DNA from: Candidatus Pacearchaeota archaeon
GTDB lineage: Archaea > Nanobdellota > Nanobdellia > Pacearchaeales > GW2011-AR1
Direction of reading: 5' to 3'
NCBI GenBank assembly: GCA_018221285.1
Contig: JAAOYJ010000024.1
Location: 13,156 to 77,155 of the forward strand
DNA: 64,000 bases
The notes below the pieces were generated by a model. It was not told the DNA's origin and did no database searches. It worked only from the letters and a program-made list of their open reading frames with translations. The number at the start of each line of letters is the position of its first letter. Position 1 is the first letter of the stretch. Shown one piece after another: positions 5,508 to 61,080 of this stretch. Position numbers and translations under genes: made by a program.

Positions 5508-5639
5508 CTCGCTGACGCGAGGATTGGTGAGAGTTATTAATGATTTAGCTTTATCCCACCCACCCGTGGGAGGAAGTAGTTAATAAAAAAGAACTTAATA
5601 TGTTGAGCAACTTAGCTGGTTTTTTGTTAATAGTTTTTT
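5508..5639 (+). repeat. mosaic intergenic repeat, copy A
   Basis: CTCGC-TGAC-GCGAG hairpin, AGAGTTATTAATGATTTAGC, CCCAC-CCACCC-GTGGG hairpin, core GAAGTAGTTAAT..AAGAACTTAATATGTTGAGCAACTTAG, tail TTTTTTGTTAATAGTTTTTT. Confidence 0.8.
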
Positions 5640-5713
5640 AATCATGAGCACATTGTGCGAATCTATTTTCCCATCACAACAATCTTTAAATTCTGTATCT
5701 TACTTTTCTCTTC

Positions 5714-6247
5714 ATGAAGTATGATAAAAATCAGGCGCATTATGTTGTTATTACTTGTATTCCTGTTAATGAAGAAGGAAAATATTTGATTGCAAAGAGA
5801 GCTGAGAAGGAGAAGGCATTTCCTGGTTTGTGGACTGTTCCAGGAGGGAAGTTGGAGGTTTTGGATTATGCGCTGAGAGAGAAGGACACGTCTGCTCATT
5901 GGTATAATGTTTTTGAGGATGTTGCAAAGAAAGAGATGAAAGAAGAAGTTGGATTGGAAGTTAAAAATATTGAATATGTCACTAGTATGGTTTATATTCG
6001 GAGTGATGGTGTTCCTGCGGTGATTGTGAGTTTGTGGGCAAAAGTTGTTGGAGATTCCACTAAAGTGAAACTTTGTCATGCTTTAACAGATTACAAATGG
6101 GTTACACTTGAAGAAGCAAAGAATTATGAATTGATTGATGGGATTTATGAAGAGCTTGAGATTTTGGATAGGAAATTGAAGGATGGGGGGAAGATGGGAG
6201 AGTGGAAGAAGAGTGATGGAGATGAAGGGTTGTTTGGGAGTTATTAA
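5714..6247 (+). CDS. NUDIX hydrolase
   Basis: Nudix-box-like GGKLE...AKKEMKEEVGLEV. Confidence 0.7.
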   Translation: MKYDKNQAHYVVITCIPVNEEGKYLIAKRAEKEKAFPGLWTVPGGKLEVLDYALREKDTSAHWYNVFEDVAKKEMKEEVGLEVKNIEYVTSMVYIRSDGVPAVIVSLWAKVVGDSTKVKLCHALTDYKWVTLEEAKNYELIDGIYEELEILDRKLKDGGKMGEWKKSDGDEGLFGSY

Positions 6248-6302
6248 CTGAAGAGTGATAACATATAGAAACACTTATAAAGTCTATTTCTTGGATTAGT
6301 TT

Positions 6303-6629
6303 ATGAAAGATAAAGATTCGTATACTTTGAAAGAAGTTGCAGAGTTTGTTAGTGGAGCTACTTTTGAATGTCTAACTAATGACTCAACCGCATCTATGAT
6401 GGGGTACTTAGAAAAAAACATGCCAAGTAAGTTATATTTTGAAACTCTTTATAAATTTGGAGAAAAGTTAAAAGAAAGTGGGAAGGATCCAAGATTGTAT
6501 AAATTAGGGGTACAATTGATGGGGACCTCTTTAGCACTAAGGCTAGAAGATAATTTTAATTCTTCGCTTAAATCTACAATTGATTCTGCAATTTCTATGA
6601 TAAAAAAAGATAGAGAGGCTAGAGATTAA
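6303..6629 (+). CDS. hypothetical protein (108 aa)
   Basis: ORF track. Shares a Y-x3-Y-x2-G-x-KLKESG motif with the ORF at 14175..14486. Confidence 0.4.
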   Translation: MKDKDSYTLKEVAEFVSGATFECLTNDSTASMMGYLEKNMPSKLYFETLYKFGEKLKESGKDPRLYKLGVQLMGTSLALRLEDNFNSSLKSTIDSAISMIKKDREARD

Positions 6630-6630
6630 G

Positions 6631-7032
6631 ATGAAAAACAAAAGGGAAAGAGTAATAGAAAGAAAAAATTATATCGATAAAGTTAGCTTGCCTAATGATA
6701 GGAATTTTAGAAATATGGCTTCAATAACAGGATTAGCATTGGCTGTAGACGCGTTTCAATCTTTATTTACTGGGGAGCTTTTTATTTATGGTAAACCTAT
6801 CGAACAAGCCATACAACCTGCTCTTTATGCTATGTCCTCTCTTGGACCTCTTTATGCGGCCAGAATGTCAGAGGAAGCAATTAAAGATTCTAAGAATAAA
6901 GTTAAAGCATTAGAATATGGATTAGATAAGAATGATTTTGATAGTTCTATGGTAGAAATGGCTTCTGATGGTCCAACAAATTGGAAGGAAGCTTTTTCAG
7001 ATTTCTTTTATGAGTTTAAGAAAGATAAGTAG
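6631..7032 (+). CDS. hypothetical protein (133 aa)
   Basis: ORF track. Starts 2 nt after the previous stop. Confidence 0.4.
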   Translation: MKNKRERVIERKNYIDKVSLPNDRNFRNMASITGLALAVDAFQSLFTGELFIYGKPIEQAIQPALYAMSSLGPLYAARMSEEAIKDSKNKVKALEYGLDKNDFDSSMVEMASDGPTNWKEAFSDFFYEFKKDK

Positions 7033-7083
7033 TTTAAGAGTTATTAACAAAACCCTTAAATATCTCTTGCAATTGTTTTTTTG

Positions 7084-7767
7084 ATGAAACTTAATGATGT
7101 TGAGATAAAGTGGTTAGGGCATGCTGGTTTTTTGATAAGGAATTCTTCTGTAATTTATATTGATCCTTATAAAATTGGTGATGGGTCTGAGAAGGCTGAT
7201 TTGATTTTGATAACACATAGTCATTATGATCATTGTAGTGTTGCTGATATGGAGAAGATTATCAAAGAGGGCACGCGGATTGTTATGACTGCTGATTGTC
7301 AGAGTAAGATTACGCGGTTTGATGTGCCGATTAGGATGGAGATAATTGAGCCTGGACAGGATTTGGAGTTTGGAGATGTGAAGATCTCTGCTTTGCCCGC
7401 GTATAATTTAGATAAACCTTTTCATTCTCAAGATGAGCATTGGGTTGGTTATTTAATTAAGATTGGAGAGGTTCTTATTTATCATGCAGGAGATACTGAT
7501 GTGATTCCTGAGATGCAGAAGTTGACAGGGCATAAGCAAGAAGGAAAGGAGTTTGTGGCGTTGCTTCCGATTGGAGGGAGATTTACAATGGATGTTGAGG
7601 AGGCTGTTGAAGCAGCGAAGATGATTAAGCCGACATTGGCAATTCCAATGCATTATGGAGATATTGTGGGAACAGAAGATGATGCTAAAGAGTTTTGTGA
7701 GATGTGTGGGGAAGAGGGTGTGAAGGCTAGGATGTTGGATGCCCTAAAGGGCACGAGGAAAGAATGA
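7084..7767 (+). CDS. MBL-fold metallo-hydrolase
   Basis: LITHSHYDH (H-x-H-x-D-H) plus downstream HAGDTD and PMHYG. ATG at 7084 preferred over TTG at 7081. Confidence 0.75.
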   Translation: MKLNDVEIKWLGHAGFLIRNSSVIYIDPYKIGDGSEKADLILITHSHYDHCSVADMEKIIKEGTRIVMTADCQSKITRFDVPIRMEIIEPGQDLEFGDVKISALPAYNLDKPFHSQDEHWVGYLIKIGEVLIYHAGDTDVIPEMQKLTGHKQEGKEFVALLPIGGRFTMDVEEAVEAAKMIKPTLAIPMHYGDIVGTEDDAKEFCEMCGEEGVKARMLDALKGTRKE

Positions 7768-8237: not shown

Positions 8238-8842
8238 AAAACAATTTCTCTCAACGAAAACAATCAATCCTCTCGAAGGAGGATAAATCCTCGAGAGGGA
8301 AATGGGATGAGAAGATTGTTAAGTTGTGCGATAAGATAAATTCGTTTGAAGAATATTATACTACGTCGTCGTGTTCTGGAAGAGTTGTGATTATGATTGA
8401 CCAGGATAAAAAGGAGAGTGATTTGTTTTTGAAGGTTTGGCATGATTTGATTTCGTTAAGTCAGTTGAGAGAAGAATTGAAGGAGATTGATAAGGATTCG
8501 GTTAAATTTAAGCAAAAGCAAGACCAAAGATCTTCCATCTGTCCAAACTTAGTTAAGTTTAAACAGGAGCCATGCATACTTCATATTGATTGCAGGACTA
8601 TTGATGATGCTAAGAGATTGTTGGATAAAGCTAGATTAGCAGGTTGGAAAAAGTCAGGAATAATTTCTTTGGGAGAGAGGATAATTGTTGAATTGAATGG
8701 GACAGATAAGTTGGAGTTTCCGATTATGAAGAGTGGAAAGATATTGGTTGGAGAGGATTTTTTGGAAGTAATTGTTGAAAAGTCTAATGATAATTTGAAA
8801 AAGAGCTGGAGTAAGATTGGGAAGTTGAAGAATTTATTCTAA
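8234..8842 (+). CDS. taw3: tRNA wybutosine/wyosine-synthesizing protein 3 (Taw3/TYW3-like methyltransferase)
   Basis: DEKIVKLCDKINSFEEYYTTSSCSGRVVIM matches the TYW3 signature ...YYTTSSCSGR. Confidence 0.75.
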   Translation: MKNNFSQRKQSILSKEDKSSRGKWDEKIVKLCDKINSFEEYYTTSSCSGRVVIMIDQDKKESDLFLKVWHDLISLSQLREELKEIDKDSVKFKQKQDQRSSICPNLVKFKQEPCILHIDCRTIDDAKRLLDKARLAGWKKSGIISLGERIIVELNGTDKLEFPIMKSGKILVGEDFLEVIVEKSNDNLKKSWSKIGKLKNLF

Positions 8843-9048
8843 ATAAAATCCATCTTCTAACACAGAAATATTTATATAGAACAAGCTATTTAATTTATTA
8901 TAATATTAATTTTACTTGGCGGTTAATTAATATTTATGTAGGGAGGTGATTCCTCTTTTTCTTTAACAATAGTTGGAAGTTTGCGAACTATTTAAATATT
9001 TCGCTAAAGCAGGCCAACAAATAGAATTGAAAGGAGGTTAAAAAATAA

Positions 9049-10128
9049 ATGGTGTTAGATTTTGCAAAAGAAGCGATACAAAAAACAGAGAGCCACAGTA
9101 TTAACTTTGACGAGTTAAGAGCAGGGAAAGCCAACATTAAAGTTATTGGTGTTGGAGGATGTGGGAATAATATGGCGACATGGCTTTTTAATAAAGGAAT
9201 TATGGGGGCTACAATCTATGCAGCGAATACGGATGCACTTCACCTGAGTGTTACAAAAGCTGATGAGAAAATTCTTATTGGAAAGGAATTGACTAAAGGA
9301 TTGGGTGCTGGTGGACGACCAATGACTGGAAAGGAAGCTGCTAAGGAGGCTCTTGTAGATCTTAAGAAAGCTATTTCAGGAGCAGATATGATATTTGTTC
9401 TGGCTGGAATGGGTGGTGGAACAGGAACTGGAGCAGCACCTGTAGTGGCACAACTCGCAAAAGAGACTGGTGCGGTAGTAATTAGTGTTGTTACAATGCC
9501 TTTTGAAGCAGAGAAAGCTAGAATCGATAAAGCTGAATTTGGCTTGCAGGAACTTAGAGATGTGACTGATACATGTATTGTCCTTGATAATAACAGACTT
9601 GTTGATATTGCTGGGCAACTTCCGATTGAACAGGCTTTTGCTGTTGCGAACGAGTTGGTTAGTACAATGGTTAAAGGAATTGTAGAGACAATTACACTTC
9701 CGAGTTTGATTAACTTGGATTATGCAGATGTTTCTTCGATTATGAAGAACGGAGATGTAGCTGTGATTGGAATTGGTGAATCGAATACACAAGATCGTGT
9801 GAATGATGCTGTTCAGCAGGCCCTTACTCATCCTCTACTTGATGTGGATTATAAAGGTGCTACTGGAGCTTTGATTCATATAACTTGCGGCCCTGATTTG
9901 AAGTTAGAAGAGTTTGATGTAATTGGTCGGTCGGTTTCAGAGAATTTAAATCCAGAAGCGAATGTTATTATTGGAGCGAGAATCAGTAAGGATTTTATTG
10001 GGAAGGTTCGAGTGATTACAATAATGACTGGAGTTAAGTCTCCTTATGTAATGGGTAAGAGTATGGATGATCACACTTTACCTGTGTCCAGGGAGATGTC
10101 TGATTTAGGAATTGAGGTCTTGAGATAA
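9049..10128 (+). CDS. ftsZ: cell division protein FtsZ
   Basis: GVGGCGNNM and the tubulin signature GGGTGTGAAPVVA. Strong GGAGGT Shine-Dalgarno sequence upstream of the ATG. Confidence 0.95.
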   Translation: MVLDFAKEAIQKTESHSINFDELRAGKANIKVIGVGGCGNNMATWLFNKGIMGATIYAANTDALHLSVTKADEKILIGKELTKGLGAGGRPMTGKEAAKEALVDLKKAISGADMIFVLAGMGGGTGTGAAPVVAQLAKETGAVVISVVTMPFEAEKARIDKAEFGLQELRDVTDTCIVLDNNRLVDIAGQLPIEQAFAVANELVSTMVKGIVETITLPSLINLDYADVSSIMKNGDVAVIGIGESNTQDRVNDAVQQALTHPLLDVDYKGATGALIHITCGPDLKLEEFDVIGRSVSENLNPEANVIIGARISKDFIGKVRVITIMTGVKSPYVMGKSMDDHTLPVSREMSDLGIEVLR

Positions 10129-10146
10129 TTTGTTTTTATTATTTAT

Positions 10147-10176
10147 CCCCTCTTCGGAGGGGCTTTTTTCTTTTTT
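10147..10176. terminator. hairpin CCCCTC-TTCG-GAGGGG followed by a T-run
   Basis: Perfect 6-bp GC stem with a TTCG loop, then CTTTTTTCTTTTTT. Lies between convergent ftsZ and the 10202..10876 gene. Confidence 0.5.
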
Positions 10177-10201
10177 AGAATTTATTTGGTATTTCTTTTT
10201 A

Positions 10202-10876
10202 TCAAGTCGTTAGAAATAAACCATATAATAAACCCATTAGAAAAGGGATTATTATTAATGTTAAAATAATTACTGTGAGGCAAGCCCATGGGCCAACTCT
10301 TTTTTCGTTTTCCCTGTCGTCTATTATTCTATTTATTTCGTATTGTAAATAAAGAAAGTTAAATATTAGAGTAAAAAACCAAGAAGCTTTTCTTGTGCCC
10401 CCTTTATTTGTCATAGTTTGATTTAAGATTGTTCTTGTATTGAAAGCGAGTTTAAGGGACAAGTAAATTAATAAGATTGTAAATATAAACCCTATTGAGA
10501 GAAGGATTAGGCCTAAAGTAGTTTCTAAAAAGACATTAATTTTATCTTTAAAGAATAGATTAGCAATTTGGAGGATTATAATAATTATCATAAATATCAA
10601 ATAAGTTATCGCTGCTCCTTTACTTAATTTTTTTTGAGTTTTTAAATTATCAAATTCTGGTTTTCTTTTAATATACCAAATTGCAGGATAAATCCCAAGA
10701 GTTATAATGCTTAGAAACCAGAGCCAAACTACGCTCTTTTTCTGGGGAACTTTTGGACCTGGTTGAGTTTCTGTTTGGACCTTTTTTGTTTGCGGCACTT
10801 TTTTTAGAGGTTGTTGATTTGGAGGGGTTGTTTGAATCACCTTTTTTTTCACAACTTTTTTAATTTGATTATTCAT
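10202..10876 (-). CDS. multi-pass membrane protein (DUF4234-like motif)
   Basis: K/P/Q-rich N-terminus, then TM helices. LGIYPAIWYIKRK resembles DUF4234. Confidence 0.45.
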   Translation of the reverse strand: MNNQIKKVVKKKVIQTTPPNQQPLKKVPQTKKVQTETQPGPKVPQKKSVVWLWFLSIITLGIYPAIWYIKRKPEFDNLKTQKKLSKGAAITYLIFMIIIIILQIANLFFKDKINVFLETTLGLILLSIGFIFTILLIYLSLKLAFNTRTILNQTMTNKGGTRKASWFFTLIFNFLYLQYEINRIIDDRENEKRVGPWACLTVIILTLIIIPFLMGLLYGLFLTT

Positions 10877-10878
10877 CT

Positions 10879-11436
10879 TTAAACATCCAATGTTTTTGGA
10901 ACCTTCATTTTTTTGTTTTTGAATTTGTGGAAGTAAAGGACATTGTCCAAATCAATCTTTGCTTTTCGTGTTCGCTTTTTGTTGAATTCATACCCTATTG
11001 GAAAGATTGCTTCTACATGTATGTCCTTTGGGATTTTTACAGCCTCTTTTATTATCCTGTCTACGAAATGTCCTATCCAACAAGTTGCTAGTTTTTTCTC
11101 CTCGATTTTCAATAAGAAGTTTTGAATTGCTGCCCCTGCTTGCTGTCTACAATACCTTTCCCCTCTCTCCTCATAAGCATTTAATGTTATTCTTGGATCT
11201 GAGCAGACAACTACGACATATTTTACTTGTTTGATAAACTCTTGTTGAGATGCTTCAGCAAGTTTATTGATTGTTTTTTCGTCGTCAATTAGAACAAACC
11301 TCAATGTGAAACAGTCGCCTGCCATTGGGGCAAATCGCGCAGCATCAATACAGTCGATGATATCTCTCCAATCTGGCTTTTTATCTTTGAACTTTCTTGT
11401 GCTATGTCTTCCTTGAATTGCTTTGTCAAGTTGCAT
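10879..11436 (-). CDS. nitroreductase family protein
   Basis: N-terminal AIQGRHSTRKF motif. Length and layout fit NADH oxidase/nitroreductase. Confidence 0.7.
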   Translation of the reverse strand: MQLDKAIQGRHSTRKFKDKKPDWRDIIDCIDAARFAPMAGDCFTLRFVLIDDEKTINKLAEASQQEFIKQVKYVVVVCSDPRITLNAYEERGERYCRQQAGAAIQNFLLKIEEKKLATCWIGHFVDRIIKEAVKIPKDIHVEAIFPIGYEFNKKRTRKAKIDLDNVLYFHKFKNKKMKVPKTLDV

Positions 11437-12209: not shown

Positions 12210-12324
12210 GTCCTGGTAGCTCAGTTGGTAGAGCGATCGGCTGTTAAGTACCATCAAGATGGTTCATTCCGTATCTTGAGATACAGAAACCGATAGGTCG
12301 TAGGTTCGAGTCCTACCTGGGACG
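12210..12324 (+). tRNA. tRNA-Asn (GTT) with an intron of about 41 nt in the anticodon loop
   Basis: Manual fold: acceptor GTCCTGG/CTGGGAC, D-arm GCTC-AGTTGGTA-GAGC, anticodon stem ATCGG/CCGAT, loop CTGTTAA, T-arm GTAGG-TTCGAGT-CCTAC. A T6 run follows. No encoded CCA. Confidence 0.85.
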
Positions 12325-15032: not shown

Positions 15033-15063
15033 GGTTGGGTGAAGAGAAAGAGATATTTAAAAT

Positions 15064-15205
15064 GCTCGCTGACGCTACTCGCGACCTCGCACGAGTGATT
15101 AATTCTTAGCACTCTCTACCACGAAATCGCTAGGATTAATAAGAGTTATTAATGGAAAAGAACTTAATACGTTGAGTAACTATTTGATTTTTTGTTAATA
15201 GTTTT
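15064..15205 (+). repeat. mosaic intergenic repeat, copy B
   Basis: GCTCGCTGACGC + ACTCGCGACCTCGCACGAGT...CTCTCTACCACGAAATCGCT module + AGAGTTATTAATGGAAAAGAACTTAATACGTTGAGTAACTA + TTTTTTGTTAATAGTTTT. Confidence 0.8.
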
Positions 15206-15226
15206 AAGAATTATGAGTGGAACGAA

Positions 15227-16768: not shown

Positions 16769-16858
16769 CTCGCTAACGCGAGGATTAGAGAAGAAGTAGT
16801 TAATGAATTAGCTTCGCATAATACGTTGGGTAACTTACAATATTCTTTTTTGTTAATA
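16769..16858 (+). repeat. mosaic intergenic repeat, copy C
   Basis: CTCGC-TAAC-GCGAG hairpin + GAGAAGAAGTAGTTAATGAATTAGCTTCGCATAATACGTTGGGTAACTTA + TTTTTTGTTAATAA. Confidence 0.85.
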
Positions 16859-16901
16859 AATCTTATCAATTTGCGAACACAGGTGAGCAAGTAGAATAAA
16901 G

Positions 16902-17309
16902 TTAAATCTTCCCTCTCACACTATGCTTTGCACCGCATGCAAGGCAATGAATGAATGTTAATCGGTCTTGTTTCTTAAGTTCTGTGTCTGGCTTTCCGCA
17001 TTCTTTACACAGTACAAACTCCTTGACGTATTGTTCTATCTTCTGATTTATCTTCGCGCTTGGAACTTTTATGTTTAGAACAAGCCTGTCACCGTCTTTA
17101 TGGCCTGAAGCTGCGAGTTCTCTTAACATGAATTTCTGAAAATGCTCTGGGTTTCTCCTTATGTGAGACACTATCTGAAAGAAGTTTGTCAAAATGGTTT
17201 TCTTTCCTTCAAAATGCCCTTCAACCTTTGGAATCTCAAACCTTCCACTAGCAACATCAACTTTCTTTACTTTCTTGTAAGCTTCATCAAGTAATTGTTC
17301 GTATGTCAT
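16902..17309 (-). CDS. eif2b: translation initiation factor aIF-2 subunit beta
   Basis: YEQLLDEAY N-terminus and a C-terminal CKECGKPDT...CLACGA zinc ribbon. Confidence 0.9.
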   Translation of the reverse strand: MTYEQLLDEAYKKVKKVDVASGRFEIPKVEGHFEGKKTILTNFFQIVSHIRRNPEHFQKFMLRELAASGHKDGDRLVLNIKVPSAKINQKIEQYVKEFVLCKECGKPDTELKKQDRLTFIHCLACGAKHSVRGKI

Positions 17310-18040: not shown

Positions 18041-18088
18041 CTCGCCGGAGGCGAGGTGTTGGGAGATGTTGATAATGGGAAAATTTAG
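18041..18088 (+). repeat. mosaic intergenic repeat, copy D (short)
   Basis: CTCGCC-GGA-GGCGAG hairpin + GTGTTGGGAGATGTTGATAATGGGAAAATTTAG, which parallels the 5' part of copy A. Confidence 0.55.
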
Positions 18089-20946: not shown

Positions 20947-22830
20947 ATGCCTAATCGATCTGAATTCCTGCGACTTTGTGAAGAGAATGAGTATTCTAAG
21001 AGAGAGATTGATCTTTTTAGAAAGGCTCTTGATTATTCAAAGGAGCAGTTTAAAGCTGAAAAGAGGTTATCTGGCGAGCTAGTGATGAGACATAATATTG
21101 AAATTGGAAAAATTTTGGTTAAGTCGAAACTTTTCCCAGAAGTTGTTGTGGCAGGTATTCTTTATGGGGGAGAGGGGAAAGTTCTTCCAACTGAACTTCA
21201 GAAAGAATTTGGAAAGGAGATTTCTGATTTGGTTTATGGCCAATCACAGTTAAAAGTTATTAAGTCAAAGAATGAAAATGTTGAAGCAGAGACTTTGAGG
21301 AAAATTTTGTTAGTCACTATCAAAGATGTTCGGATTATTTTTGTGAAACTCGCAGATAAGTTGGATAATCTTAAGACGATGAGGGTGTTACCTGAAAAAG
21401 AGCAGAGGAAAATTGCAGAAGAAGTTCTTGAAGTTTATGCTCCACTTGCAAATCGTTTTGGATTGGAGTATATTCGGCGTAGATTAGAAGAGAGGGCATT
21501 TAAGATTCTTAATCTTCGTAGATATAATGAGATTGTAAATTTTTTGAAAGATTCAAAAGAGAATAGGCAGAAGTTTGTTAAGGATTTTATTGGAGAGGTT
21601 AGTAAGAAGTTGGGGGGGAAAGCTAAGATAGTTGGAATTAAGGGAAGAGAGAAGCACATCTATAGTATTTATAAGAAACTTCACAGGGAGAGTTTACATA
21701 ATCAAAGAGATCATTTTGCGATTAGGATTATTGCTAAGTCTGTTGATGATTGTTATAAGGCTCTTGGGATTTTGCATGAAAATTATGAAGGGGGAAGGCT
21801 GAAAGATTATATTGCTTCTCCGAAACCAAATGGTTACCAGTCATTGCATACTACTTTGAATATTGTAGGAAAATATGTGGAAGTTCAAATTAGGACGCAA
21901 GAGATGGAAGAAGTTGCAGAGGAAGGTGTTGCTTCGCATTGGTCTTATAAGAAGTTGAAATCAGATGAGAATTTTGAAAAGAAAACTGCGTGGTTAAGGT
22001 CTGTTTTGGATTTGCAGGCTAATGAGAAGGATAAGGAATTTTTGAAGACAGTTAAGTTGAATGTTTTTGGAGATAAGATTTATTGTTATACTCCTCAGGG
22101 AAAGGCGATTGATTTGCCAAAAGGGTCGACGATTCTTGATTTTGCTTATCAGATTCATCAAGAGGTTGGGAATCGTGCTGTTGGAGGGAGGATTGATGGG
22201 ATTTATGCGTCGCTCAGGAAAGAGTTGAAAAACGGCGAGGTTGTTGAGATAATGACTAATAAGAACCAGAGACCGAGGAGAGACTGGGTTAAGTTTGTTG
22301 TATCTGCCCGTGCAAGAAGTATAATTAGAAAAGAAGTTAAGAGGTATGAAAAGATTCCTGTGGCTAAACATTATTCAATTAAGGAATCAGAGAAAGAGAA
22401 GTTTGATGATTTGACTTATTCTTTAGAGTTTCCTAATCATAAACTTTCTTTGGCAAAGTGCTGCTCTCCGATTCCAAAGAATGAAATTGTGGGAGTGATT
22501 AAATCTCATAGAAAGATTTCAGTTCATGTTAAGGATTGCAAGAGGATAAAGGAAGCGGTAGATAGAATTATTCCTGTTTTCTGGAAAGAGACTTTTAATC
22601 GTCCGATAAAGATTATTGTTGAGGCGTCTGATAGGTCTGGGATACTGGCAGATATGCTTAATACGATTTCTCGAGGAGGTTTTGTTGTGAAAGAAGCAAA
22701 TGCAAAGTTGATTAGTAATGGGGCCTCTGAATGTTCTTTTGTAATTGTTCCTCAGAAGCTTGAGCATATAGTTAATTTGATAAAAAGGATAAAGAAAGTT
22801 CGGGGTGTGCAGAAGATTTGGTTTGAATAA
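20947..22830 (+). CDS. long RelA/SpoT homolog (HD-like, synthetase, TGS, ACT); hydrolase motif degenerate
   Basis: Synthetase motifs GREKHIYSIYKKL, DHFAIRII, KDYIASPKPNGYQSLHT, VEVQIRTQEM, ASHWSYK. TGS region IYCYTPQGKAIDLPKGSTILDFAYQIH. ACT-like C-terminus. The position of the hydrolase LLHDxxEDT motif reads ILYGGEGKV. Confidence 0.85.
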   Translation: MPNRSEFLRLCEENEYSKREIDLFRKALDYSKEQFKAEKRLSGELVMRHNIEIGKILVKSKLFPEVVVAGILYGGEGKVLPTELQKEFGKEISDLVYGQSQLKVIKSKNENVEAETLRKILLVTIKDVRIIFVKLADKLDNLKTMRVLPEKEQRKIAEEVLEVYAPLANRFGLEYIRRRLEERAFKILNLRRYNEIVNFLKDSKENRQKFVKDFIGEVSKKLGGKAKIVGIKGREKHIYSIYKKLHRESLHNQRDHFAIRIIAKSVDDCYKALGILHENYEGGRLKDYIASPKPNGYQSLHTTLNIVGKYVEVQIRTQEMEEVAEEGVASHWSYKKLKSDENFEKKTAWLRSVLDLQANEKDKEFLKTVKLNVFGDKIYCYTPQGKAIDLPKGSTILDFAYQIHQEVGNRAVGGRIDGIYASLRKELKNGEVVEIMTNKNQRPRRDWVKFVVSARARSIIRKEVKRYEKIPVAKHYSIKESEKEKFDDLTYSLEFPNHKLSLAKCCSPIPKNEIVGVIKSHRKISVHVKDCKRIKEAVDRIIPVFWKETFNRPIKIIVEASDRSGILADMLNTISRGGFVVKEANAKLISNGASECSFVIVPQKLEHIVNLIKRIKKVRGVQKIWFE

Positions 22831-22836
22831 AAATAG

Positions 22837-22950
22837 GTTCGCTCCGCTCACGATGGGTGGCTTCGAATCCTCCTTCGGCAGGATTCTTCGCTGAGAGGTT
22901 GTTAATGAGTTAGCTTCGCATAGTGTGTTGAGAAACTATTATTGTTATTA
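22837..22950 (+). repeat. mosaic intergenic repeat, copy E
   Basis: GGCTTCGAATCCT-loop-AGGATTCTTCGC hairpin + TGAGAGGTTGTTAATGAGTTAGCTTCGCATAGTGTGTTGAGAAACTA. Confidence 0.8.
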
Positions 22951-23004
22951 CTTCTAAAAGATAACAGTAGGAAGATTTATAAGAGTGAAAAATTTACTAA
23001 ACAA

Positions 23005-24018
23005 ATGAATATTGAAATAATTGATATATTAGTTGCGAGATTAAAAGATGCCCCAGTTGAAAAGCATCTGTTAGAAGCCCACCAGGATTTTTTGTTAAGA
23101 ACAGGATTCAGAAAAGTTGGTGAAGAAGGTATCTCACAAGATTCTGGCGTACTTGCAATAAATAGGAGTATGTATGCAGTTCCAGTTGTAACTGATGTTG
23201 TGTTTCTTCCCTTTAGTCGTTTAGAAGAAACGAGCGAAGGATATTGTTTTGGTCCTGAAGATACTAATGCGATTCCAGTAAATATGTGGTACGGAAAATG
23301 GCAAGGAAATTTAGTAAGTAGAGTGGATCTTTTTGTTCCGAAGCATATGGATCCTTTTCTTTATATTAGTGAATCTCTCCCAGATTATACAGAAAGAGAC
23401 AGGAGTGAACTAGAAAGATTTGAAGTTAGAAAATTTATTAGAAGTAGGGAAAATATAGAAGCAGTATTCCCTAGTTTGTGTGAAAAACTTGAAAGAGTTA
23501 CTCAACCATTAGAAATGCAGGTTTCTGAATTTGACGAAATCAAAAGTAATATTTCAGATAACCTTGATCTTTTAGGAATTGATCATAAAATTATTTATAG
23601 GTCAAAAACAGTAGAAAGTGTTTTTAGTAAAGCTGAAAGGCGACTAGCTACCATAAATTCATATAACGATTTTACTTATGGAGATTTGGGGTGGTTAGTA
23701 GATAAGGATATACCTTCTCTTGAAGAGGTGGCTCTATATAGTCCAGACATAAATGGCATGAGAGTTATGGTTAAAAGTGCAGAAGAATGTTATAAGGCAC
23801 TTGATGTTTTATCTCAAGAATATAAAGTTGAGAGTGTTGAAAGAGATGATGGAACCCTATTTTATCGAATTTATGATTGTATTCCATTTCCAAAAAGAAC
23901 AGGGTTCCAGATGATAGGTTATTTTTCTGAGATTAATGGAAAAAGAATTCACTTTGAAATCCAATCCGAAAAGATGCAATCAAGGGCTGCTAATGACGGA
24001 TATCATCTGAGAGTTTAA
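23005..24018 (+). CDS. divergent RelA/SpoT-synthetase-like nucleotidyltransferase with an unknown N-terminal domain
   Basis: The C-terminal third parallels the neighbour's synthetase domain. YRSKTVESVFSKAERRL matches GREKHIYSIYKKL. DINGMRVMVKSAEECYKALDVL matches DHFAIRIIAKSVDDCYKALGIL. PFPKRTGFQMIGY matches SPKPNGYQSLHT. IHFEIQSEKMQ matches VEVQIRTQEME. ATG 23005 preferred because the track start lies inside repeat E. Confidence 0.5.
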   Translation: MNIEIIDILVARLKDAPVEKHLLEAHQDFLLRTGFRKVGEEGISQDSGVLAINRSMYAVPVVTDVVFLPFSRLEETSEGYCFGPEDTNAIPVNMWYGKWQGNLVSRVDLFVPKHMDPFLYISESLPDYTERDRSELERFEVRKFIRSRENIEAVFPSLCEKLERVTQPLEMQVSEFDEIKSNISDNLDLLGIDHKIIYRSKTVESVFSKAERRLATINSYNDFTYGDLGWLVDKDIPSLEEVALYSPDINGMRVMVKSAEECYKALDVLSQEYKVESVERDDGTLFYRIYDCIPFPKRTGFQMIGYFSEINGKRIHFEIQSEKMQSRAANDGYHLRV

Positions 24019-24715: not shown

Positions 24716-24815
24716 AGGGTATTGCGCGAAACAAGTTCGCGATATTGATGGCTTCGCGTCGGACTTTGTCACGACGCTTCGCAGAGAGAAGTAGTTAATT
24801 GAATAGCTTGTTTAG
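24716..24815 (+). repeat. mosaic intergenic repeat, copy F (degenerate core)
   Basis: CGCGAA-ACAAG-TTCGCG hairpin, ATGGCTTCGC + GCGTCG-GACTTTGTCA-CGACGC hairpin + GCTTCGCAGAGAGAAGTAGTTAATTGAATAGCTTG. Confidence 0.7.
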
Positions 24816-24854
24816 TATAATAATTAATATAAACTAATTTTAATTCGAAGATTT

Positions 24855-26244: not shown

Positions 26245-26296
26245 GATTTAGAAAGGAAGGTGAAGTTTATAGGGATTTTGGTGTTTGGGGGGATGT

Positions 26297-26392
26297 CCCT
26301 ACTCGCGACTTCGCACGAGTCATGGAATGAGGGATTACTCTCTACCACGAAGTCGCTCTCCCACCCTTGCCCGTGGGGAGAGGGTTGTTAAA
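26297..26392 (+). repeat. mosaic intergenic repeat, copy G (truncated core)
   Basis: ACTCGCGACTTCGCACGAGT...CTCTCTACCACGAAGTCGCT (same module as copy B) + CTCCCACCC..GTGGGGAG hairpin + GGTTGTTAAAT. The TTA of GTTGTTAA is the stop codon of the minus-strand gene 26388..26756. Confidence 0.75.
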
Positions 26393-26756
26393 TATAATCA
26401 TAATGAACACTTTTATTGTAAGTATTATTATTTCTCGGATCAGTGTATGGATAATGAATTTCTATAGAATCTCCCTTATCTTTAGTCCGATCCTCCCCTT
26501 CAATAAATGTCTTTAGATCGATTTTCTTCAATTTAGGAGTTTTATTAACTCTAGTATCTTCCTCTGAAAAAGGATGTCTATAATTACAATGGGTTATCCA
26601 TTTGATATCCTCTATTCCAAAACGACCTTCTTTCTTAAAAAGGTTTCCAATAAATAAACTGAAAACTCGTTGATCTTTATGTTTAGAAATATATTGTCTC
26701 CATAAATGTATTTCTTGTCCAATATACTTTTTTAATCCTTTATTTGTAATTTTCAT
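26388..26756 (-). CDS. hypothetical protein (122 aa)
   Basis: ORF track; no motif recognised. Confidence 0.4.
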   Translation of the reverse strand: MKITNKGLKKYIGQEIHLWRQYISKHKDQRVFSLFIGNLFKKEGRFGIEDIKWITHCNYRHPFSEEDTRVNKTPKLKKIDLKTFIEGEDRTKDKGDSIEIHYPYTDPRNNNTYNKSVHYDYI

Positions 26757-30988: not shown

Positions 30989-31098
30989 GAGCCTGTAGCT
31001 CAGCCTGGTTAGAGCACTACTCTGATAATGGCCTAATCTTTAATTAGAATTGGGTATTGGTGAGGTAGGGGTCCACGGTTCAAATCCGTGCAGGCTCA
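30989..31098 (+). tRNA. tRNA-Ile (GAT) with an intron of about 36 nt in the anticodon loop
   Basis: Manual fold: acceptor GAGCCTG/CAGGCTC (perfect), D-arm GCTC-AGCCTGGTTA-GAGC, anticodon stem CTACT/GGTAG, loop CTGATAA, T-arm CACGG-TTCAAAT-CCGTG. Confidence 0.85.
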
Positions 31099-41060: not shown

Positions 41061-41061
41061 T

Positions 41062-41214
41062 TTAGTAGAACATTCCTAGAAAAAATCGGAATGCGATGAT
41101 TAGAATTATGAATAAGATTATATGGGTTGGTTTTAGAGGGAATCTACTAGCGTATTCTTCGCTGTATCTCATTAGCCCGCCGAATCCAGAGGGCATGTTT
41201 ACTGATTCTGACAT
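41062..41214 (-). CDS. preprotein translocase subunit Sec61beta (50 aa; not in the ORF track)
   Basis: Hand-translated as MSESVNMPSGFGGLMRYSEEYASRFPLKPTHIILFIILIIAFRFFLGMFY. The G-L-x-R-Y motif plus a single C-terminal TM helix is typical of archaeal Sec61beta. Stop lies 1 nt before the nac start. Confidence 0.6.
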   Translation of the reverse strand: MSESVNMPSGFGGLMRYSEEYASRFPLKPTHIILFIILIIAFRFFLGMFY

Positions 41215-41291
41215 TTGTTTTTGTGTTCCTTTTTATTGAAAATGTTAGTTACAAAATTTTTGATTTTGTAATCTGACATGGTTATTTGAAA

Positions 41292-41317
41292 GATAGATAG
41301 TTTTTAAAAGTTATTAT
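41292..41317 (+). repeat. direct repeat DR1 (GATAGATAGTTTTTAAAAGTTATTAT)
   Basis: 23 nt are identical (26 nt with 1 mismatch) to 42045..42070. Contains the TATA-like TTTTTAAAAG. Confidence 0.8.
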
Positions 41318-41367
41318 ATGGTCAAATAAACCGAAGAAATTAAATAGGGAACATTATTTTTATTAAG

Positions 41368-46173: not shown

Positions 46174-46218
46174 GGTATATCTAACTATCCAGAGAATTTA
46201 AATTTTATTGTGATGTAT

Positions 46219-46288
46219 TGGCTCACTTTGTTCGCTTATTTAAGAAGTAGTTAATGAATTAGCTTCGCATAATATGTTGGGCAACTAT
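46219..46288 (+). repeat. mosaic intergenic repeat, copy H
   Basis: TGGCTCACTTTGTTCGCTTA + TTTAAGAAGTAGTTAATGAATTAGCTTCGCATAATATGTTGGGCAACTA. Confidence 0.85.
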
Positions 46289-46352
46289 TGGAAGAATTGA
46301 GAGATAGTATATATTCGATAATCTAAATCTTTTTATATGCTTGAGATATTTT

Positions 46353-50185: not shown

Positions 50186-50400
50186 AGATGGCTCCCTGGA
50201 TTATATTCGATGAATCTGATTATGTTGAGAGAGTTGTATATGAAGAACCAGTAGAAAAAGATTTAAGACGTAATGAAAATGTGCTTGGAGTTATGAAGAT
50301 TAGTGGTCAGCAAGCAGGAGAAATTGAGGAAGCATTATCTTTGAATCAAGCAGTTCCAAAATATCTGGTGGAGAGATATTCTAAGTTAGAGAATATATGA
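50182..50400 (+). CDS. hypothetical protein (72 aa)
   Basis: ATGA overlap with the upstream gene. Confidence 0.4.
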   Translation: MKMAPWIIFDESDYVERVVYEEPVEKDLRRNENVLGVMKISGQQAGEIEEALSLNQAVPKYLVERYSKLENI

Positions 50401-50443
50401 TTGTTAATGGAATGGCTTCGCATTATATGTTGAGTAACTAAAG
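50401..50443 (+). repeat. mosaic intergenic repeat, copy J (core only)
   Basis: TTGTTAATGGAATGGCTTCGCATTATATGTTGAGTAACTAAAG begins immediately after the upstream stop codon. Confidence 0.8.
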
Positions 50444-50482
50444 TATAATAATGTTTAAATATGGAAAATATAGAAGATAAAT

Positions 50483-51233: not shown

Positions 51234-51267
51234 GTGGTTGACACAGGGAATAGTTCTGATAAATAAT

Positions 51268-51639
51268 ATGAAAACAATTTTAAAAGGAAGATATAAAAAT
51301 TATAAGTCTCACCTAGATTATTTTAGAAACCAGGAAAGGTTAGTTGGCCTATCCAGATGGGAATTGGTTCAAGAAGATTCAGCACTCTATAAGGCTTTGA
51401 TAAGGTCTGGGGAATTAGAAGAAGCAATTCCAGAAATTTATCCTGGGGGAAGGGGGAGACCGCCTTTATCAGAAGATAAGCAAAAACAAATCTTAGGTCT
51501 TCATGATAAATATGAGAGAAATGCTAGTAAAGTCGCTAAACTGGTTGGATGTTCTCCACCCACTGTTATTAGATATTGGGAAGGGAAGGATTTAGAGATA
51601 AGAAGTTGTGGAAGACCTAGATTAGATAATCAATCATAA
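51268..51639 (+). CDS. HTH-containing hypothetical protein
   Basis: C-terminal ASKVAKLVGCSPPTVIRYWEG is HTH-like. ATG 51268 preferred over TTG 51238. Confidence 0.35.
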   Translation: MKTILKGRYKNYKSHLDYFRNQERLVGLSRWELVQEDSALYKALIRSGELEEAIPEIYPGGRGRPPLSEDKQKQILGLHDKYERNASKVAKLVGCSPPTVIRYWEGKDLEIRSCGRPRLDNQS

Positions 51640-55849: not shown

Positions 55850-55855
55850 TTTTAG

Positions 55856-56006
55856 ATTCGCTAGCGCTCATAATTAATGGCTCACAACTGGCCCTGCCAA
55901 GTTTTTCGCTTAGAATACTGTTAAGTCGATATCAGATTCTTTCGCGGGGAAATCTGACAGAGTCGATTTCTGAGCAACTAATCTCGAGCAAAGCGAGTTA
56001 ATTACT
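55856..56006 (+). repeat. mosaic intergenic repeat, copy M (expanded, highly structured)
   Basis: TTAATGGCTCAC...TTCGCTTA (as in copy H), GTTAAG...CTGAGCAACTAATC core variant interrupted by a CAGATT-loop-AATCTG hairpin, and the terminal CTCG-AGCAAAG-CGAG hairpin + GTTAATTAC. Confidence 0.6.
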
Positions 56007-56082
56007 AGTTTTAATTGAGAAGAAGGGTTTTTATTATTTTGTATTACCTAAATTCTTATAAAACTTGATTTTGAATTATGAG

Positions 56083-56415: not shown

Positions 56416-56422
56416 TTAAATC

Positions 56423-57280: not shown

Positions 57281-57385
57281 AATTTAATAAATCCTTTGGA
57301 ATATTTAAGTATTTTTATTATGTACAACACTATGGACATTTTTTGTGCAGTAAAGAGTATATAGTTTACAAGTCATATAATATAT

Positions 57386-58762: not shown

Positions 58763-58933
58763 ATATTCTAATAGCCATATTACTTAATAAATATTCTGAA
58801 ATGGATATTGTGACATATTTTTACTCATATATAGGAACGAAAATATATATCCCAAAACATTTAAAAGGACAACACTGTCTGAATATATACATTAAAACAC
58901 ATATATCTACATCACATATGTTCAGTAAATAAA

Positions 58934-59200
58934 ATGAAAGACAATTTTGACATCTTTTTCAGGAGAAAGCCGGCTTTGATGTTGGTTTCTTTGAAGAAGA
59001 ATTTAAGAATAAGATATGGTAGTCTTTTGGCTAAGGAAGTGGATTGCACTTATAGCCACGCAGTAAAGATTCTGCAGACTTTGGAAGTTCTGAAATTAGT
59101 TGAGTTTGAAAAAAAGGGGCGAATAAAACTAATTAGGTTGACCAAGAAAGGTCGAGAAGTCTCAGATGCGATTGAGAATATTCAGAAATTAATCAAGTGA
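58934..59200 (+). CDS. small winged-helix DNA-binding protein
   Basis: YGSLLAKEVDCTYSHAVKILQTLEVLKLVEFEKKGRIKLIRLTKKG is a typical wHTH. Confidence 0.5.
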   Translation: MKDNFDIFFRRKPALMLVSLKKNLRIRYGSLLAKEVDCTYSHAVKILQTLEVLKLVEFEKKGRIKLIRLTKKGREVSDAIENIQKLIK

Positions 59201-59267
59201 TTATAATTCTGTTAAAGACGCCCCTTGAAATGAAGAGATAGTAGTGGGTACGCTGAGATATCAGTAG

Positions 59268-59277
59268 TTTTTTAAAC
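59268..59277 (+). promoter_or_regulatory. TATA-like box TTTTTTAAAC for tRNA-Lys
   Basis: Centred about 28 nt upstream of the tRNA 5' end. Confidence 0.4.
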
Positions 59278-59300
59278 TTCTTCCTTTAATATTAATTAAT

Positions 59301-59416
59301 GGCTCTGTAGCTCAGCCTGGTCAGAGCACTAGACTCTTATGCACGACATGTCGTACGTTCTTTACGAGTGTCGCAAAGAAATCTAGGTGTCGGGGGTTCA
59401 AATCCCTCCAGGGCCA
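59301..59416 (+). tRNA. tRNA-Lys (CTT) with an intron of about 40 nt in the anticodon loop
   Basis: Manual fold: acceptor GGCTCTG/CAGGGCC (one G-U pair), D-arm GCTC-AGCCTGGTCA-GAGC, anticodon stem CTAGA/TCTAG, loop CTCTTAT, T-arm GGGGG-TTCAAAT-CCCTC. Confidence 0.8.
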
Positions 59417-60078
59417 TGTTTGTTTATGACTTCTAAAAGTTCTTCAATAGAATTAGTGTTAAACTGGGCGAGATTATGAACATTGGCATTAAAAGAGATG
59501 CTCACATCCGAATTATCTAACATTGTTTTATCTCCTAGGCTGTGGCCAATTCCAATTACTTTATGATTCTTTTTTAGTTCTTTAATGATATGTCCTTTAA
59601 GTTTATCTGAGATTACGAGTTGTGTGCCAGTTATTTTAGTGTTACCAAATATAAACTCTCCTGCGATTATGTTTCTTGAGTCAAAATCTATTTCACCTAG
59701 TTTAGCTTCGCAAATGTCTTTCATTCCAGAACTGATGAAAATCACAGAGTAATCTTTAGTTAGTTGTTTTATTAATTTATCAAACCCTTCTACCCAAGGA
59801 GTTTCTTCCACAATGTTATCGCGTAATTTTTTATATTCTTTTAGGTCATGCTCCCAGAACAAACTATTAAGATAACCTATTTCTTCAAATGAACAAGGGA
59901 TATATTTCTCTAATTCTTTTTTATCAATTGTTCCTGCTATTTTTTGAGTAACTTTTCTTACAAGATGAATTGGTATAGCAAGTTCATCAAAATCAAAAGC
60001 TAAGACAACCTTGTGTTTAAGGTTAAGTTCAGAAATTCTTTTATCTAAGAGTTTTAAGTTTTCTTCTTTAGTAAGCAT
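59398..60078 (-). CDS. HAD-superfamily phosphatase
   Basis: Motif I VLAFDFDE (DxD), motif II ISSG, and the GIGHSLGDKTML motif III/IV region. ATG 60078 preferred over TTG 60126. The last 19 nt are antisense to the tRNA-Lys 3' end. Confidence 0.6.
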   Translation of the reverse strand: MLTKEENLKLLDKRISELNLKHKVVLAFDFDELAIPIHLVRKVTQKIAGTIDKKELEKYIPCSFEEIGYLNSLFWEHDLKEYKKLRDNIVEETPWVEGFDKLIKQLTKDYSVIFISSGMKDICEAKLGEIDFDSRNIIAGEFIFGNTKITGTQLVISDKLKGHIIKELKKNHKVIGIGHSLGDKTMLDNSDVSISFNANVHNLAQFNTNSIEELLEVINKHGPGGI

Positions 60079-60128
60079 GTATGAACGTAAACAGTAAAAC
60101 TTAAAAACGTGTTGATTTTCATTCAATC

Positions 60129-60470
60129 ATGACTTTAAGGTTTTGTCACAAATGCAAAACTTTACAGAGACCCCGAAAAAAAGACGGGAAGATTATTTTT
60201 GATTGTTCTAAGTGTGGATTTTCTGAAGTTATTGACGAGAAAGATCATGTGATTACAAGTGAGAAAATGAAGAAGCCTGAGAAAAGAGGAAAGGGTTCTG
60301 TGGAGGATAAGGATGTGTTTGCAACGTATGAACATGTTTGTGAAAAGTGCGGGTATGATAAAGCAGAAGTAATAGATATGGGGATATTTTATTCAGATGA
60401 AGATAATTTGATTTTACTTAAATGTGGTAAGTGTGGTTGGTCTGAAAGGATTGGTCGGAAGGTATCTTAG
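60129..60470 (+). CDS. TFS/RpoM-like two-zinc-ribbon protein with a non-canonical acidic loop
   Basis: N-ribbon FCHKC...CSKCG. C-ribbon CEKCG...FYSDEDNLILLKCGKCGWSER, where canonical TFS has QTRSADE. Confidence 0.6.
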   Translation: MTLRFCHKCKTLQRPRKKDGKIIFDCSKCGFSEVIDEKDHVITSEKMKKPEKRGKGSVEDKDVFATYEHVCEKCGYDKAEVIDMGIFYSDEDNLILLKCGKCGWSERIGRKVS

Positions 60471-60566
60471 TCCCGCCCACCCACCCGTGGGGCGCTGACG
60501 CGCCAGTTGTTAATGAATTAGCTTCGCATAATCGTTTGAGTAACTTAACCTGTTTTTTGTTAATTA
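60471..60566 (+). repeat. mosaic intergenic repeat, copy K
   Basis: CCCAC-CCACCC-GTGGG hairpin, GGCGC-TGAC-GCGCC hairpin, AGTTGTTAATGAATTAGCTTCGCATAATCGTTTGAGTAACTTA, TTTTTTGTTAATTAC. Confidence 0.85.
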
Positions 60567-60598
60567 CTTTTTATTTCGAGCCTAAGGCGAGCAATTGT

Positions 60599-60907
60599 TT
60601 ATCTATATTCTCTCCAGGTGTGATTGCACTTTGTGCATTTGAAGAATTTAGTTTCTGCTTCGTCTCCTGCTCTTGTTTGAACAGTCCAGAAATAAGCATG
60701 TTTATTTTTGCACTTCTCGCAATCTTCCTTAACAATCGGTCTGACTTCAGAATCTTTTTCTTTTACCACAGTGATTTCTTTTTTATCATTAATCTTTTCG
60801 GAGATTATTACTTTTACTTTTTCTTTAGAAGAATAACTACATCGAGGGCATTTGCTTCCTTTCCCCCCTGACATCAAAATCGCACCGCACTTTGGACAAA
60901 ATTCCAT
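60599..60907 (-). CDS. tfs: transcription factor S (TFS)
   Basis: N-ribbon FCPKCG...CPRC. C-ribbon CEKC...WTVQTRAGDEAETKFFKCTKCNHTWRE with the canonical acidic hairpin. Confidence 0.85.
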   Translation of the reverse strand: MEFCPKCGAILMSGGKGSKCPRCSYSSKEKVKVIISEKINDKKEITVVKEKDSEVRPIVKEDCEKCKNKHAYFWTVQTRAGDEAETKFFKCTKCNHTWREYR

Positions 60908-60974
60908 ATTAAGATTAACACCTCATAAGCTAGGTACTTTTGTTCAGGTTGGTTTAAAAAGTTTTGGTTTATAT

Positions 60975-61080
60975 TGCTCGCTTCGCTCGGGATGAATGGC
61001 TCCGCGCCAGACTTTGTCGAGGCGCTTCACGAGAAGAAGTTGTTAATGGGATAGCTTCGCATAATCTGTTGAGTAACTTA
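60975..61080 (+). repeat. mosaic intergenic repeat, copy L
   Basis: CTCGCTTCGCTCGG, ATGGCTCCGC + GCGCC-AGACTTTGTCGA-GGCGC hairpin + CTTCACGAGAAGAAGTTGTTAATGGGATAGCTTCGCATAATCTGTTGAGTAACTTA. Confidence 0.85.

Follow-up and report, generated by a model that had tools for sequence, protein, structure and literature searches.

The 64,000-nt stretch analysed here (the window, with all positions numbered on the whole stretch) belongs to contig JAAOYJ010000024.1 of a Candidatus Pacearchaeota archaeon and carries a family of short intergenic repeats, each combining GC-rich hairpin modules with an AT-rich core, which we could document at 12 loci. The repeats are a real, lineage-restricted, mosaic interspersed family that behaves like inserted DNA. 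The window encodes TBP, TFS, eIF1A, eIF2-beta, MCM and intron-bearing tRNAs as archaeal marks, and its closest MCM and TBP matches (86% and 92–93% identity, respectively) were found in Pacearchaeota, Woesearchaeota or Nanoarchaeota metagenome-assembled genomes, so that the DPANN-type host suggested by the first-pass annotation of this DNA is borne out and is, by these best matches, of Pacearchaeota type. The gene names assigned there are upheld by Pfam for Amidase/gatA, RelA_SpoT, KH, DUF5679, OB-fold/RPA, TBP, AlbA_2, topoisomerase and two TFS-like proteins.

A mosaic repeat family in intergenic DNA

The core motif TAGCTTCGCATAAT, allowing up to two mismatches, was found eight times in the window against 0.54 expected, a number reached in 0 of 100 shuffles, and GTTGAGTAACTTA was found 12 times against 2.1 expected. 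An nhmmer profile built from the copies recovered exactly eight full cores, all on the plus strand and with E-values between 1e-9 and 1e-17, the best match after these having E = 0.13. Two truncated copies (E and G) and two degenerate ones (18041–18088 and ~55853–56010) complete the 12 loci, fewer than the 14 initially proposed, and all of them read on the plus strand. The spacing between copies varies from 533 to 23,349 nt, an irregularity which rules out a CRISPR array or tandem repeat, at a density of about one copy per 5 kb.

Each copy is built from one to three short GC-rich palindromic modules out of a repertoire of a, b, c, d and z, followed by a purine-rich linker and then by the conserved, non-palindromic, AT-rich core of about 45 nt, or about 75 nt with its TTTTTTGTTAAT tail. 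Modules a, c and d measure 14, 22 and 16 nt and module b about 55 nt; all are intergenic. Modules a, b, c and d were found where they had been described, none of them with a copy on the minus strand, which for a, c and d is borne out by profiles, and two core subfamilies could be distinguished as proposed, with AAAAGAACTTAAT in copies A and B and TAGCTTCGCATAAT in the other six full copies. The tail, said to follow the core often, is indeed present, in four copies. Core conservation lies in the primary sequence, including three direct GTTAAT / GTTGAG-type motifs 21–29 nt apart.

Four copies lie downstream of plus-strand genes. Copy A (5508–5650, +) directly follows the gatA stop codon, upstream of a NUDIX gene, and comprises hairpin a (5508–5521), a partial core (5529–5551), hairpin d (5555–5570) and a subfamily-2 core (5573–5637) with its TTTTTTGTTAAT tail at 5620–5631 (+). 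Copy D (22836–22945, +) sits between two RelA/SpoT-homologue genes, both on the plus strand, and joins a module c variant (hairpin 22865–22886) to a core at 22895–22960 by the profile, without a T-run. Copy H (50401–50445, +; 50400–50445 by nhmmer) is a core alone, right behind the stop codon of a 72-aa open reading frame (ORF) and between plus-strand genes. Copy M (60471–60566, +), right behind the stop of the TFS-like gene which converges with tfs, contains hairpin d (60476–60491), the a-type hairpin GGCGCTGACGCGCC (60491–60504) and a core at 60504–60568 with its tail at 60553–60564.

A further four copies are antisense between minus-strand genes. Copy B (15063–15222, +), between eIF1A and KH (both minus), consists of a truncated hairpin a, module b (15077–15131) and a subfamily-2 core (15143–15204) with its tail at 15188–15199, while copy C (16769–16860, +), between eIF2-beta and DUF5679 (both minus), is made of hairpin a (16769–16782) and a core at 16793–16858 with its tail at 16846–16857. 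Copy C lies 95 nt from the DUF5679 start and thereby departs from the 30–70 nt that had been given as the distance of copies from the starts of minus-strand genes. Copy G (26287–26405, +), 42 nt upstream of the AlbA_2 gene, has a short hairpin (26287–26299), module b (26301–26357), a d-type hairpin (26358–26380) and a truncated core (26383–26405). Copy N (60976–61085, +), 68 nt upstream of tfs, carries module z (60976–60991), module c (hairpin 61004–61025) and a core at 61036–61103 by the profile, and its end abuts the stop codon of a minus-strand methyltransferase gene (61086).

The remaining four loci lie between divergent gene starts. Copy E (24722–24821, +), 47 nt upstream of tbp, has hairpin y (24722–24742), module c (hairpin 24756–24777) and a decayed core (24791–24821). 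Copy F (46216–46292, +), between divergent small ORFs, pairs a decayed module c (46216–46236) with a full core at 46244–46310 by the profile, again without a T-run. The degenerate copy at 18041–18088 (+), 49 nt upstream of the RPA-like gene, retains the a-type hairpin CTCGCCGGAGGCGAG (18041–18055) and a decayed 5' part of the core (18065–18088). The degenerate GC-rich mosaic at 55853–56010 (+), upstream of topA, holds a c-like stretch (55874–91) and TTCTGAGCAACTAATC (55968–83), which resembles the core 3' part, and its membership in the family is weak.

Several copies touch coding sequence. GTTAA of copy G supplies the TAA stop codon of the minus-strand ORF 26388–26756, as had been noted before, and copy M appears to reach into the end of the TFS-like ORF. 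The repeats might be short coding cassettes, i.e. mini-ORFs or C-terminal extensions like the Rickettsia palindromic elements (RPE), an explanation to which we assign very little probability. One core frame reads VVNELASHNxLSN...FLLI, the indel between the subfamilies is 3 nt, the frame stays open through modules and core in copies A, C, M and N and in the related contig L001 (relatives are labelled contigs with L numbers), and one related module lies inside an ORF in L085; however, in copies D and F an in-frame stop precedes the core by one codon, start codons are absent, copy B is frameshifted, the copies show no excess of substitutions at third codon positions, and a similar peptide was not found elsewhere in 1.4 Mb of related DNA. 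RPE and mycobacterial MIRUs share with the family that they are short repeats abutting or overlapping stop codons which can add codons to ORFs. They differ in that the window repeats have no consistent reading frame or translational coupling and are oriented by chromosome strand and not by genes.

Insertion into conserved junctions and strand polarity

The window could be compared with 80 MCM-syntenic Pacearchaeota loci (1.27 Mb), and the block lig-TBP-MCM-RPA-eIF2b-DUF5679-DUF424-eIF1A-KH is syntenic in dozens of these relatives. The gap between eIF1A and KH is 1–11 nt in 15 of 49 relatives, and in the nearest one, L005, the junction reads TAG-A-ATG, while in the window 192 nt, nearly all of them copy B, separate the same stop and start codons. 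Measured as the gap from gene to gene, 194 nt in the window stand against 4 nt in L005. Similarly, the eIF2b-DUF5679 spacer, which holds copy C, measures 228 nt in the window against 46 nt in L005 and a median of 93 nt, and the conserved leader and promoter of DUF5679 are still recognisable to the left of the copy. Judged by these syntenic relatives, copies B and C are evidently insertions into otherwise conserved tight junctions. A repeat search on all nine regions revealed neither terminal inverted repeats, as had been stated, nor flanking duplications at the window copies.

With four copies downstream of plus-strand genes (A, D, H, M), four antisense between minus-strand genes (B, C, G, N) and four between divergent starts (E, F, 18041, 55853), the 12 loci occupy every transcriptional context, and all of them are on the plus strand; transcription hence does not account for the fixed strand, and the claim of a polarity independent of transcription holds within the window. 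The two-sided binomial probability of this co-orientation is ~0.008 for the eight full cores and ~0.0005 for all 12 loci. GC skew amounts to +0.345 in plus-strand and -0.079 in minus-strand genes, and to +0.52 and +0.06 at their third codon positions, a pattern uniform over the four 16-kb quarters of the window. This leaves a transcription-independent component of about +0.13 overall, rising to about +0.29 at third codon positions, T exceeds A on the same strand, and no skew switch occurs across the 64 kb. Since the plus strand is thus G- and T-rich independently of coding, the polarity of the repeats follows the replication strand. A G-rich and T-rich strand is the usual signature of the leading strand of one replichore, and we infer the leading assignment from it.

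The G-rich strand of the window carries all 12 loci. In L085, G is in excess on the minus strand, where the fuller core copy is found, while a partial copy of module c and the core 5' part at 199–251 lies on the opposite, C-rich strand. The strand polarity is consequently strong, not absolute. Strand asymmetry of the same sign relative to synteny was observed in L020, L057 and L085, and almost none in several other relatives. All three tRNA genes of the window (12210–12324, 30989–31098 and 59301–59416, all +) are also found on the G-rich strand. They are 110–116 nt long, each with an intron of about 40 nt, and score 55–57 bits in Rfam; due to these introns ARAGORN in default mode finds none of them.

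Some further features border on the repeats. The 307-nt spacer at 41061–41367 contains a GC-rich stretch (~41140–41200) which has ATTCTTCGCTG in common with copy D, as well as ATGATTA and CTGA motifs, has no Rfam match, and could be a further decayed copy or an unrelated small RNA. The TFS/RPB9-type zinc-ribbon paralogues at 60129–60470 (+) and 60599–60907 (-) stand tail to tail, each adjoining a copy (M and N), and the final codons of the first hold GGTTGG/GATTGG motifs that precede other copies too. The two bacterial-type RelA/SpoT-homologue (RSH) genes on either side of copy D (20947–24018), a long one with HD_4, RelA_SpoT, TGS and ACT domains and a short synthetase-only paralogue, lie between MCM and TBP, which are 55–200 nt apart in most syntenic relatives; RSH occurs in 1 of 84 loci, and the stretch looks like an acquired island. 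Directly 3' of ftsZ, CCCCTCTTCGGAGGGGCTTTTTT (10145–10172) forms a clean hairpin followed by a T-run, terminator-like and unrelated to the repeat family.

Distribution of the modules and structure of the hairpins

Outside the window, a profile search for the core gave no copy in the 1.27 Mb of syntenic loci, and exact-pattern scans gave no core in GTDB representative genomes, neither core nor module b in IMG/VR, and a single core match in the JGI metagenomes, on contig L001. Together with L085–L090 (NCBI, ENA and Logan contigs), L001 represents a second lineage with the core, in which the copies of L001 and L085 occupy the same place, upstream of a radical-SAM gene; the L085 copy also bears the TTTTTGTTAATA tail. 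Modules reach further, with b in L020, L035, L067 and L070 and c in L039 and L085, so across genera whose MCM is 70–80% identical. Both modules predate the core and have a wider distribution, and the family as a whole is patchily distributed among related genomes. A weak core match in L062 lies inside an ORF and is probably due to chance.

On its minus strand, L085 additionally carries the palindromic module ACCCYWWWGGGCATAAA three times (1656–1672, 1753–1769 and 9918–9934). Two of these bracket the core copy; a 231-aa ORF contains one, along with a further GC-rich hairpin, in what looks like an insertion into the ORF. The apparent flanking duplication of ~20 nt at the L085 copy is this same repeat module, with another copy elsewhere, and not a target duplication.

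The first-pass annotation had offered a replication- or segregation-polar chromosomal motif as one of two explanations. Such a host-selected signal, serving translocase guidance, fork pausing or strand marking for segregation or repair, would account for the 12 loci sharing the G-rich strand and for their density of about one in 5 kb, and the three direct motifs of the core are candidate protein-binding sites. We nevertheless consider it improbable. The core is absent from the 80 syntenic relatives and, as an exact pattern, from GTDB representative genomes, copies are inserted into conserved junctions and decay, as the truncated or degenerate E, G, 18041 and 55853 show, and the partial L085 copy lies on the other strand. 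Known polar motifs, moreover, are short oligomers that occur inside genes too. The suggestion of a host motif is thus not supported. Equally improbable is a retained version of it, in which the mosaics would be a replication-polar system kept by the host, with the strand-specific modules b and c and a protein-binding core marking the leading or lagging strand; possible roles would be fork or segregation control, or processing of single-stranded DNA by a domesticated HUH enzyme.

The hairpins themselves are well maintained. The stem of hairpin a is CTCGC/GCGAG in copies A and C and GGCGC/GCGCC in copy M. In module c, 31 of 32 cells of the stem alignment are paired (four copies, three genomes), with two pairs changed on both sides (GC -> GU -> AU and CG -> UA). 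Read on the minus strand of the window, module b has a long-range stem with all 48 of 48 cells paired (five genomes), 11 of them G.U; on the plus strand these 11 cells turn into C.A mismatches and only 37 of 48 are paired. Module b therefore has its paired strand opposite the one on which the core reads and, in the window, opposite that of module c; for the genes on its flanks this strand is the sense one at window copies B and G, in L020 and in L070. These compensatory and wobble changes, which keep the stems, indicate that the hairpins are under selection. For the core, in contrast, RNAalifold predicts no pairs from nine sequences, and minimum free energies of whole elements are not unusual compared with shuffles (z -2.1 to +0.3). 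A T-run ends four of the eight full copies. No Rfam 15 family matches or overlaps any copy, even at E up to 10, and only the three tRNAs reach the gathering score.

Stems kept in this way invite an RNA-level explanation, either as a small RNA gene family on the leading strand, which had been the other previous suggestion, or as cis-acting hairpin cassettes in mRNA untranslated or intercistronic regions. Bacterial REPs stabilise, process or terminate transcripts, and to the compensatory and wobble changes can be added the strand-specific wobble pattern of module b in sense to the flanking genes, the T-run at the end of four copies, the location of the three tRNA genes on the plus strand as well, and the positionally orthologous L001/L085 core, which is more conserved than the neighbouring genes. 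We still regard this explanation as unlikely for the family, considering that the core has no consensus structure, that whole elements fold no better than shuffles, that the search at E up to 10 gave no Rfam match and that the T-run is restricted to 4/8 full copies. Copies A, D, H and M begin 0–6 nt past a stop codon, which leaves no room for a promoter. With four copies sense and four antisense to flanking genes, a cis-acting role in mRNA cannot explain the fixed DNA strand, and the structural strand of module b is opposite to that of core and module c in the window. A self-transcribed small-RNA family is thus not sustained. For module b, strand-specific pairing in sense to the flanking genes nevertheless points to an RNA-level role of at least this module.

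Other assignments were rejected on motif grounds. A C/D-box or K-turn reading fails, since the core has AAUGA...UUGAG instead of C (RUGAUGA) and D (CUGA) boxes, two copies have GG for GA, and subfamily 2 lacks the inner hairpin. By inspection, the core has only CGCATAAT in common with bacterial dif and lacks the inverted right arm of a dif/Xer site, and the GTTRRRY / RYYYAAC cores of integron attC are unmatched.

In the relatives, GC-rich insertions of 40–180 nt are found bracketed by 10–25 nt direct duplications of tRNA, L15e or eIF2-beta 3' ends (L067 7674–7942; L070 3660–3960 and 4590–4800; L030 6500–6780; L074 ~17017–17127; L043 ~6163–6294; L053 ~2241–2367), several of them ending in a b-like arm, GGTCGGGAGCA. 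They could be products of integrase att-like recombination or of some other process. L067 also contains, at 8681–8897 and 9646–9838, two MITE-like copies of ~200 nt, each bounded by perfect 12-bp terminal inverted repeats CTCTGTCCGGAG around a central b-like hairpin; they flank two small ORFs without assigned function (8898–9558). The small GC-rich insertion elements of Pacearchaeota genomes are thus of several kinds, which appear to have modules in common.

The bracketed insertions bear on a further explanation, in which the window repeats are scars or miniature derivatives of integrative elements targeting gene 3' ends. In the relatives, insertions with b-like hairpins are enclosed by duplicated gene ends, namely of a tRNA in L067 (GGGACCTCCA), of a tRNA (GTGCAGCCTCA) and L15e (AGAATATCAGTA) in L070, of eIF2-beta in L030 (~24 nt including the stop codon) and of tRNAs in L074, L043 and L053. 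In the window, eight of 12 copies adjoin the 3' end of a gene, in some cases with nucleotide precision, and at copy A a 9-nt repeat, GATTTAGCT, takes in the gatA stop codon. The 9-mer of copy A is within chance expectation, however, and is the only flanking duplication at any window copy, E, F, 18041 and 55853 lie between divergent gene starts, the window ORFs include no integrase, and the uniform orientation is left unexplained. We thus hold this origin to be rather improbable, more so than one at the RNA level.

A proposed mobile element spread through single-stranded DNA

We tentatively propose that the loci are non-autonomous, REP/BIME- or PATE-like insertion elements which spread through single-stranded DNA, as the explanation we would put first while holding it with less than even confidence. 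Neither suggestion of the first-pass annotation fits as well as a mobile element inserted strand-specifically. By analogy, and with the same reserve, the family may correspond, in an archaeon, to the REP/BIME mosaics of bacteria or to mini-elements derived from IS200/IS605 (PATEs). To our knowledge neither REP/BIME nor single-strand-transposed mini-elements have been described in these archaea.

The BIME/REP-like architecture that had been recognised before is borne out: short GC-rich palindromes form a mosaic to which a non-palindromic core is joined. Common to the window elements and the RAYT-linked REP/BIME are short GC-rich extragenic palindromes in mosaic clusters, variable linkers, many copies, a position beside gene ends, no transposase inside the element and hairpins maintained by selection. 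The palindromes of REP/BIME are imperfect and 20–40 bp in size. The window elements differ in their long non-palindromic AT-rich core and in their host, a DPANN archaeon, and while REP/BIME alternate in orientation (REPIN doublets), modules and loops (TGAC, CCACCC) here all point the same way without inverted doublets. The GTAG or CGTC tag at the foot of REP stems (PMC3733652) is also absent: hairpin a is preceded by TTAG, AATG, TTGT or ATAG, and GTAG occurs in the window elements only in the linker AAGTAGTTAAT, not abutting a stem. Classical MITEs, e.g. the Sulfolobus SM elements, are likewise small, non-coding, multi-copy, intergenic and lineage-restricted, but possess the terminal inverted repeats and target-site duplications which were both not found at the window copies.

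IS200/IS605 elements transpose as single-stranded DNA, with only the top strand active and with insertions biased to the lagging-strand template (PMC5027513). Like these elements and PATEs, the window copies are free of terminal inverted repeats and of target-site duplications and carry hairpins at an end; their orientation is biased with the replication strand (PMC5027513), a bias to which 12/12 window loci and the main L085 copy conform, with leading and lagging strand inferred from GC skew. They differ from PATEs by the missing right-end hairpin, by the apparent lack of a conserved tetra- or pentanucleotide target at the left junction and by their variable mosaic modules. Among available precedents for a polarity that is linked to replication, independent of transcription and unaccompanied by terminal inverted repeats or target duplications, IS200/IS605 is the best, with a fit that is incomplete.

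In the proposed mechanism an enzyme whose gene lies elsewhere in the genome would mobilise the elements in trans, acting on single-stranded DNA at the replication fork, and the best precedent for it is an IS200-type Y1 (HUH) transposase. This enzyme might recognise the hairpins, the repeated GTTAAT / GTTGAG core motifs or both. Because only one parental strand is exposed single-stranded on the lagging-strand template, insertions would pile up in one orientation per replichore. Mosaicism would result from nested insertion and from recombination between copies, and inserted copies would mostly be neutral passengers between a gene end and the next promoter, which may at times provide a gene with its stop codon or with a few codons at the C-terminus.

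A candidate of the required class is present in a relative. At 10840–11420 L020 encodes a 136-aa IS200-type Y1 transposase (PF01797 Y1_Tnp, 3.4e-24), inserted between a tRNA gene and a nitroreductase gene, with GC-rich hairpins on both sides and its sense strand on the G-rich strand, which corresponds to the window plus strand. IS200-type transposases are the only Y1 class seen in Archaea, and RAYT classes are unreported there (PMC6006769); no RAYT (TnpA-REP) gene, which in bacterial genomes with REPs usually has REPs on its flanks, was found in the 64-kb window. The only recombinase-related signal of the window is a weak resolvase-type HTH_7 match (1.9e-5) in a 133-aa ORF at 51238–51639, without a catalytic domain.

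Several observations weigh against this mobile-element explanation. Among the ~80 window ORFs there is no transposase, in agreement with the first-pass annotation, nor any integrase, reverse transcriptase or Orc1 domain, and the L020 IS200, which holds the only Y1_Tnp found, has ends without significant similarity to the repeat family. Hairpins occur only on the left (5') of the core, leaving as right end an unstructured core of 45–75 nt, unlike the ends of IS200/IS605, and the left junctions share no fixed 4–5 nt target, with element boundaries being uncertain. No origin lies within the window, where the equation of the G-rich with the leading strand derives from skew, and the partial L085 copy occupies the C-rich strand. 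The L001 and L085 cores are identical at 34/36 positions while their flanking genes are 82–87% identical. This conservation, with that of modules b and c across genera, could mean host function instead of selfish spread, and the pairing of module b speaks for a role at the RNA level.

Interspersed repeat families do not belong to the usual picture of DPANN archaea, whose genomes are tiny and streamlined. If the density of the window holds genome-wide, the family would make up about 2% of a genome of ~1 Mb. Modules b and c, present in several Pacearchaeota genera, are candidates for a structured element deserving its own family model. If instead the host-retained polar system were true, it would be an element of chromosomal architecture of a kind not known in Archaea. 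Should the proposed spread through single-stranded DNA be correct, REP/BIME-like mosaics would exist outside Bacteria, in a domain without known RAYT transposases, which raises the question of their mobiliser, and the orientation of the copies would provide a sequence-only marker of replication direction for uncultured archaea with unmapped origins. By splitting operons, as between eIF1A and KH, and by donating stop codons, the copies would then shape expression and gene ends in these reduced genomes.

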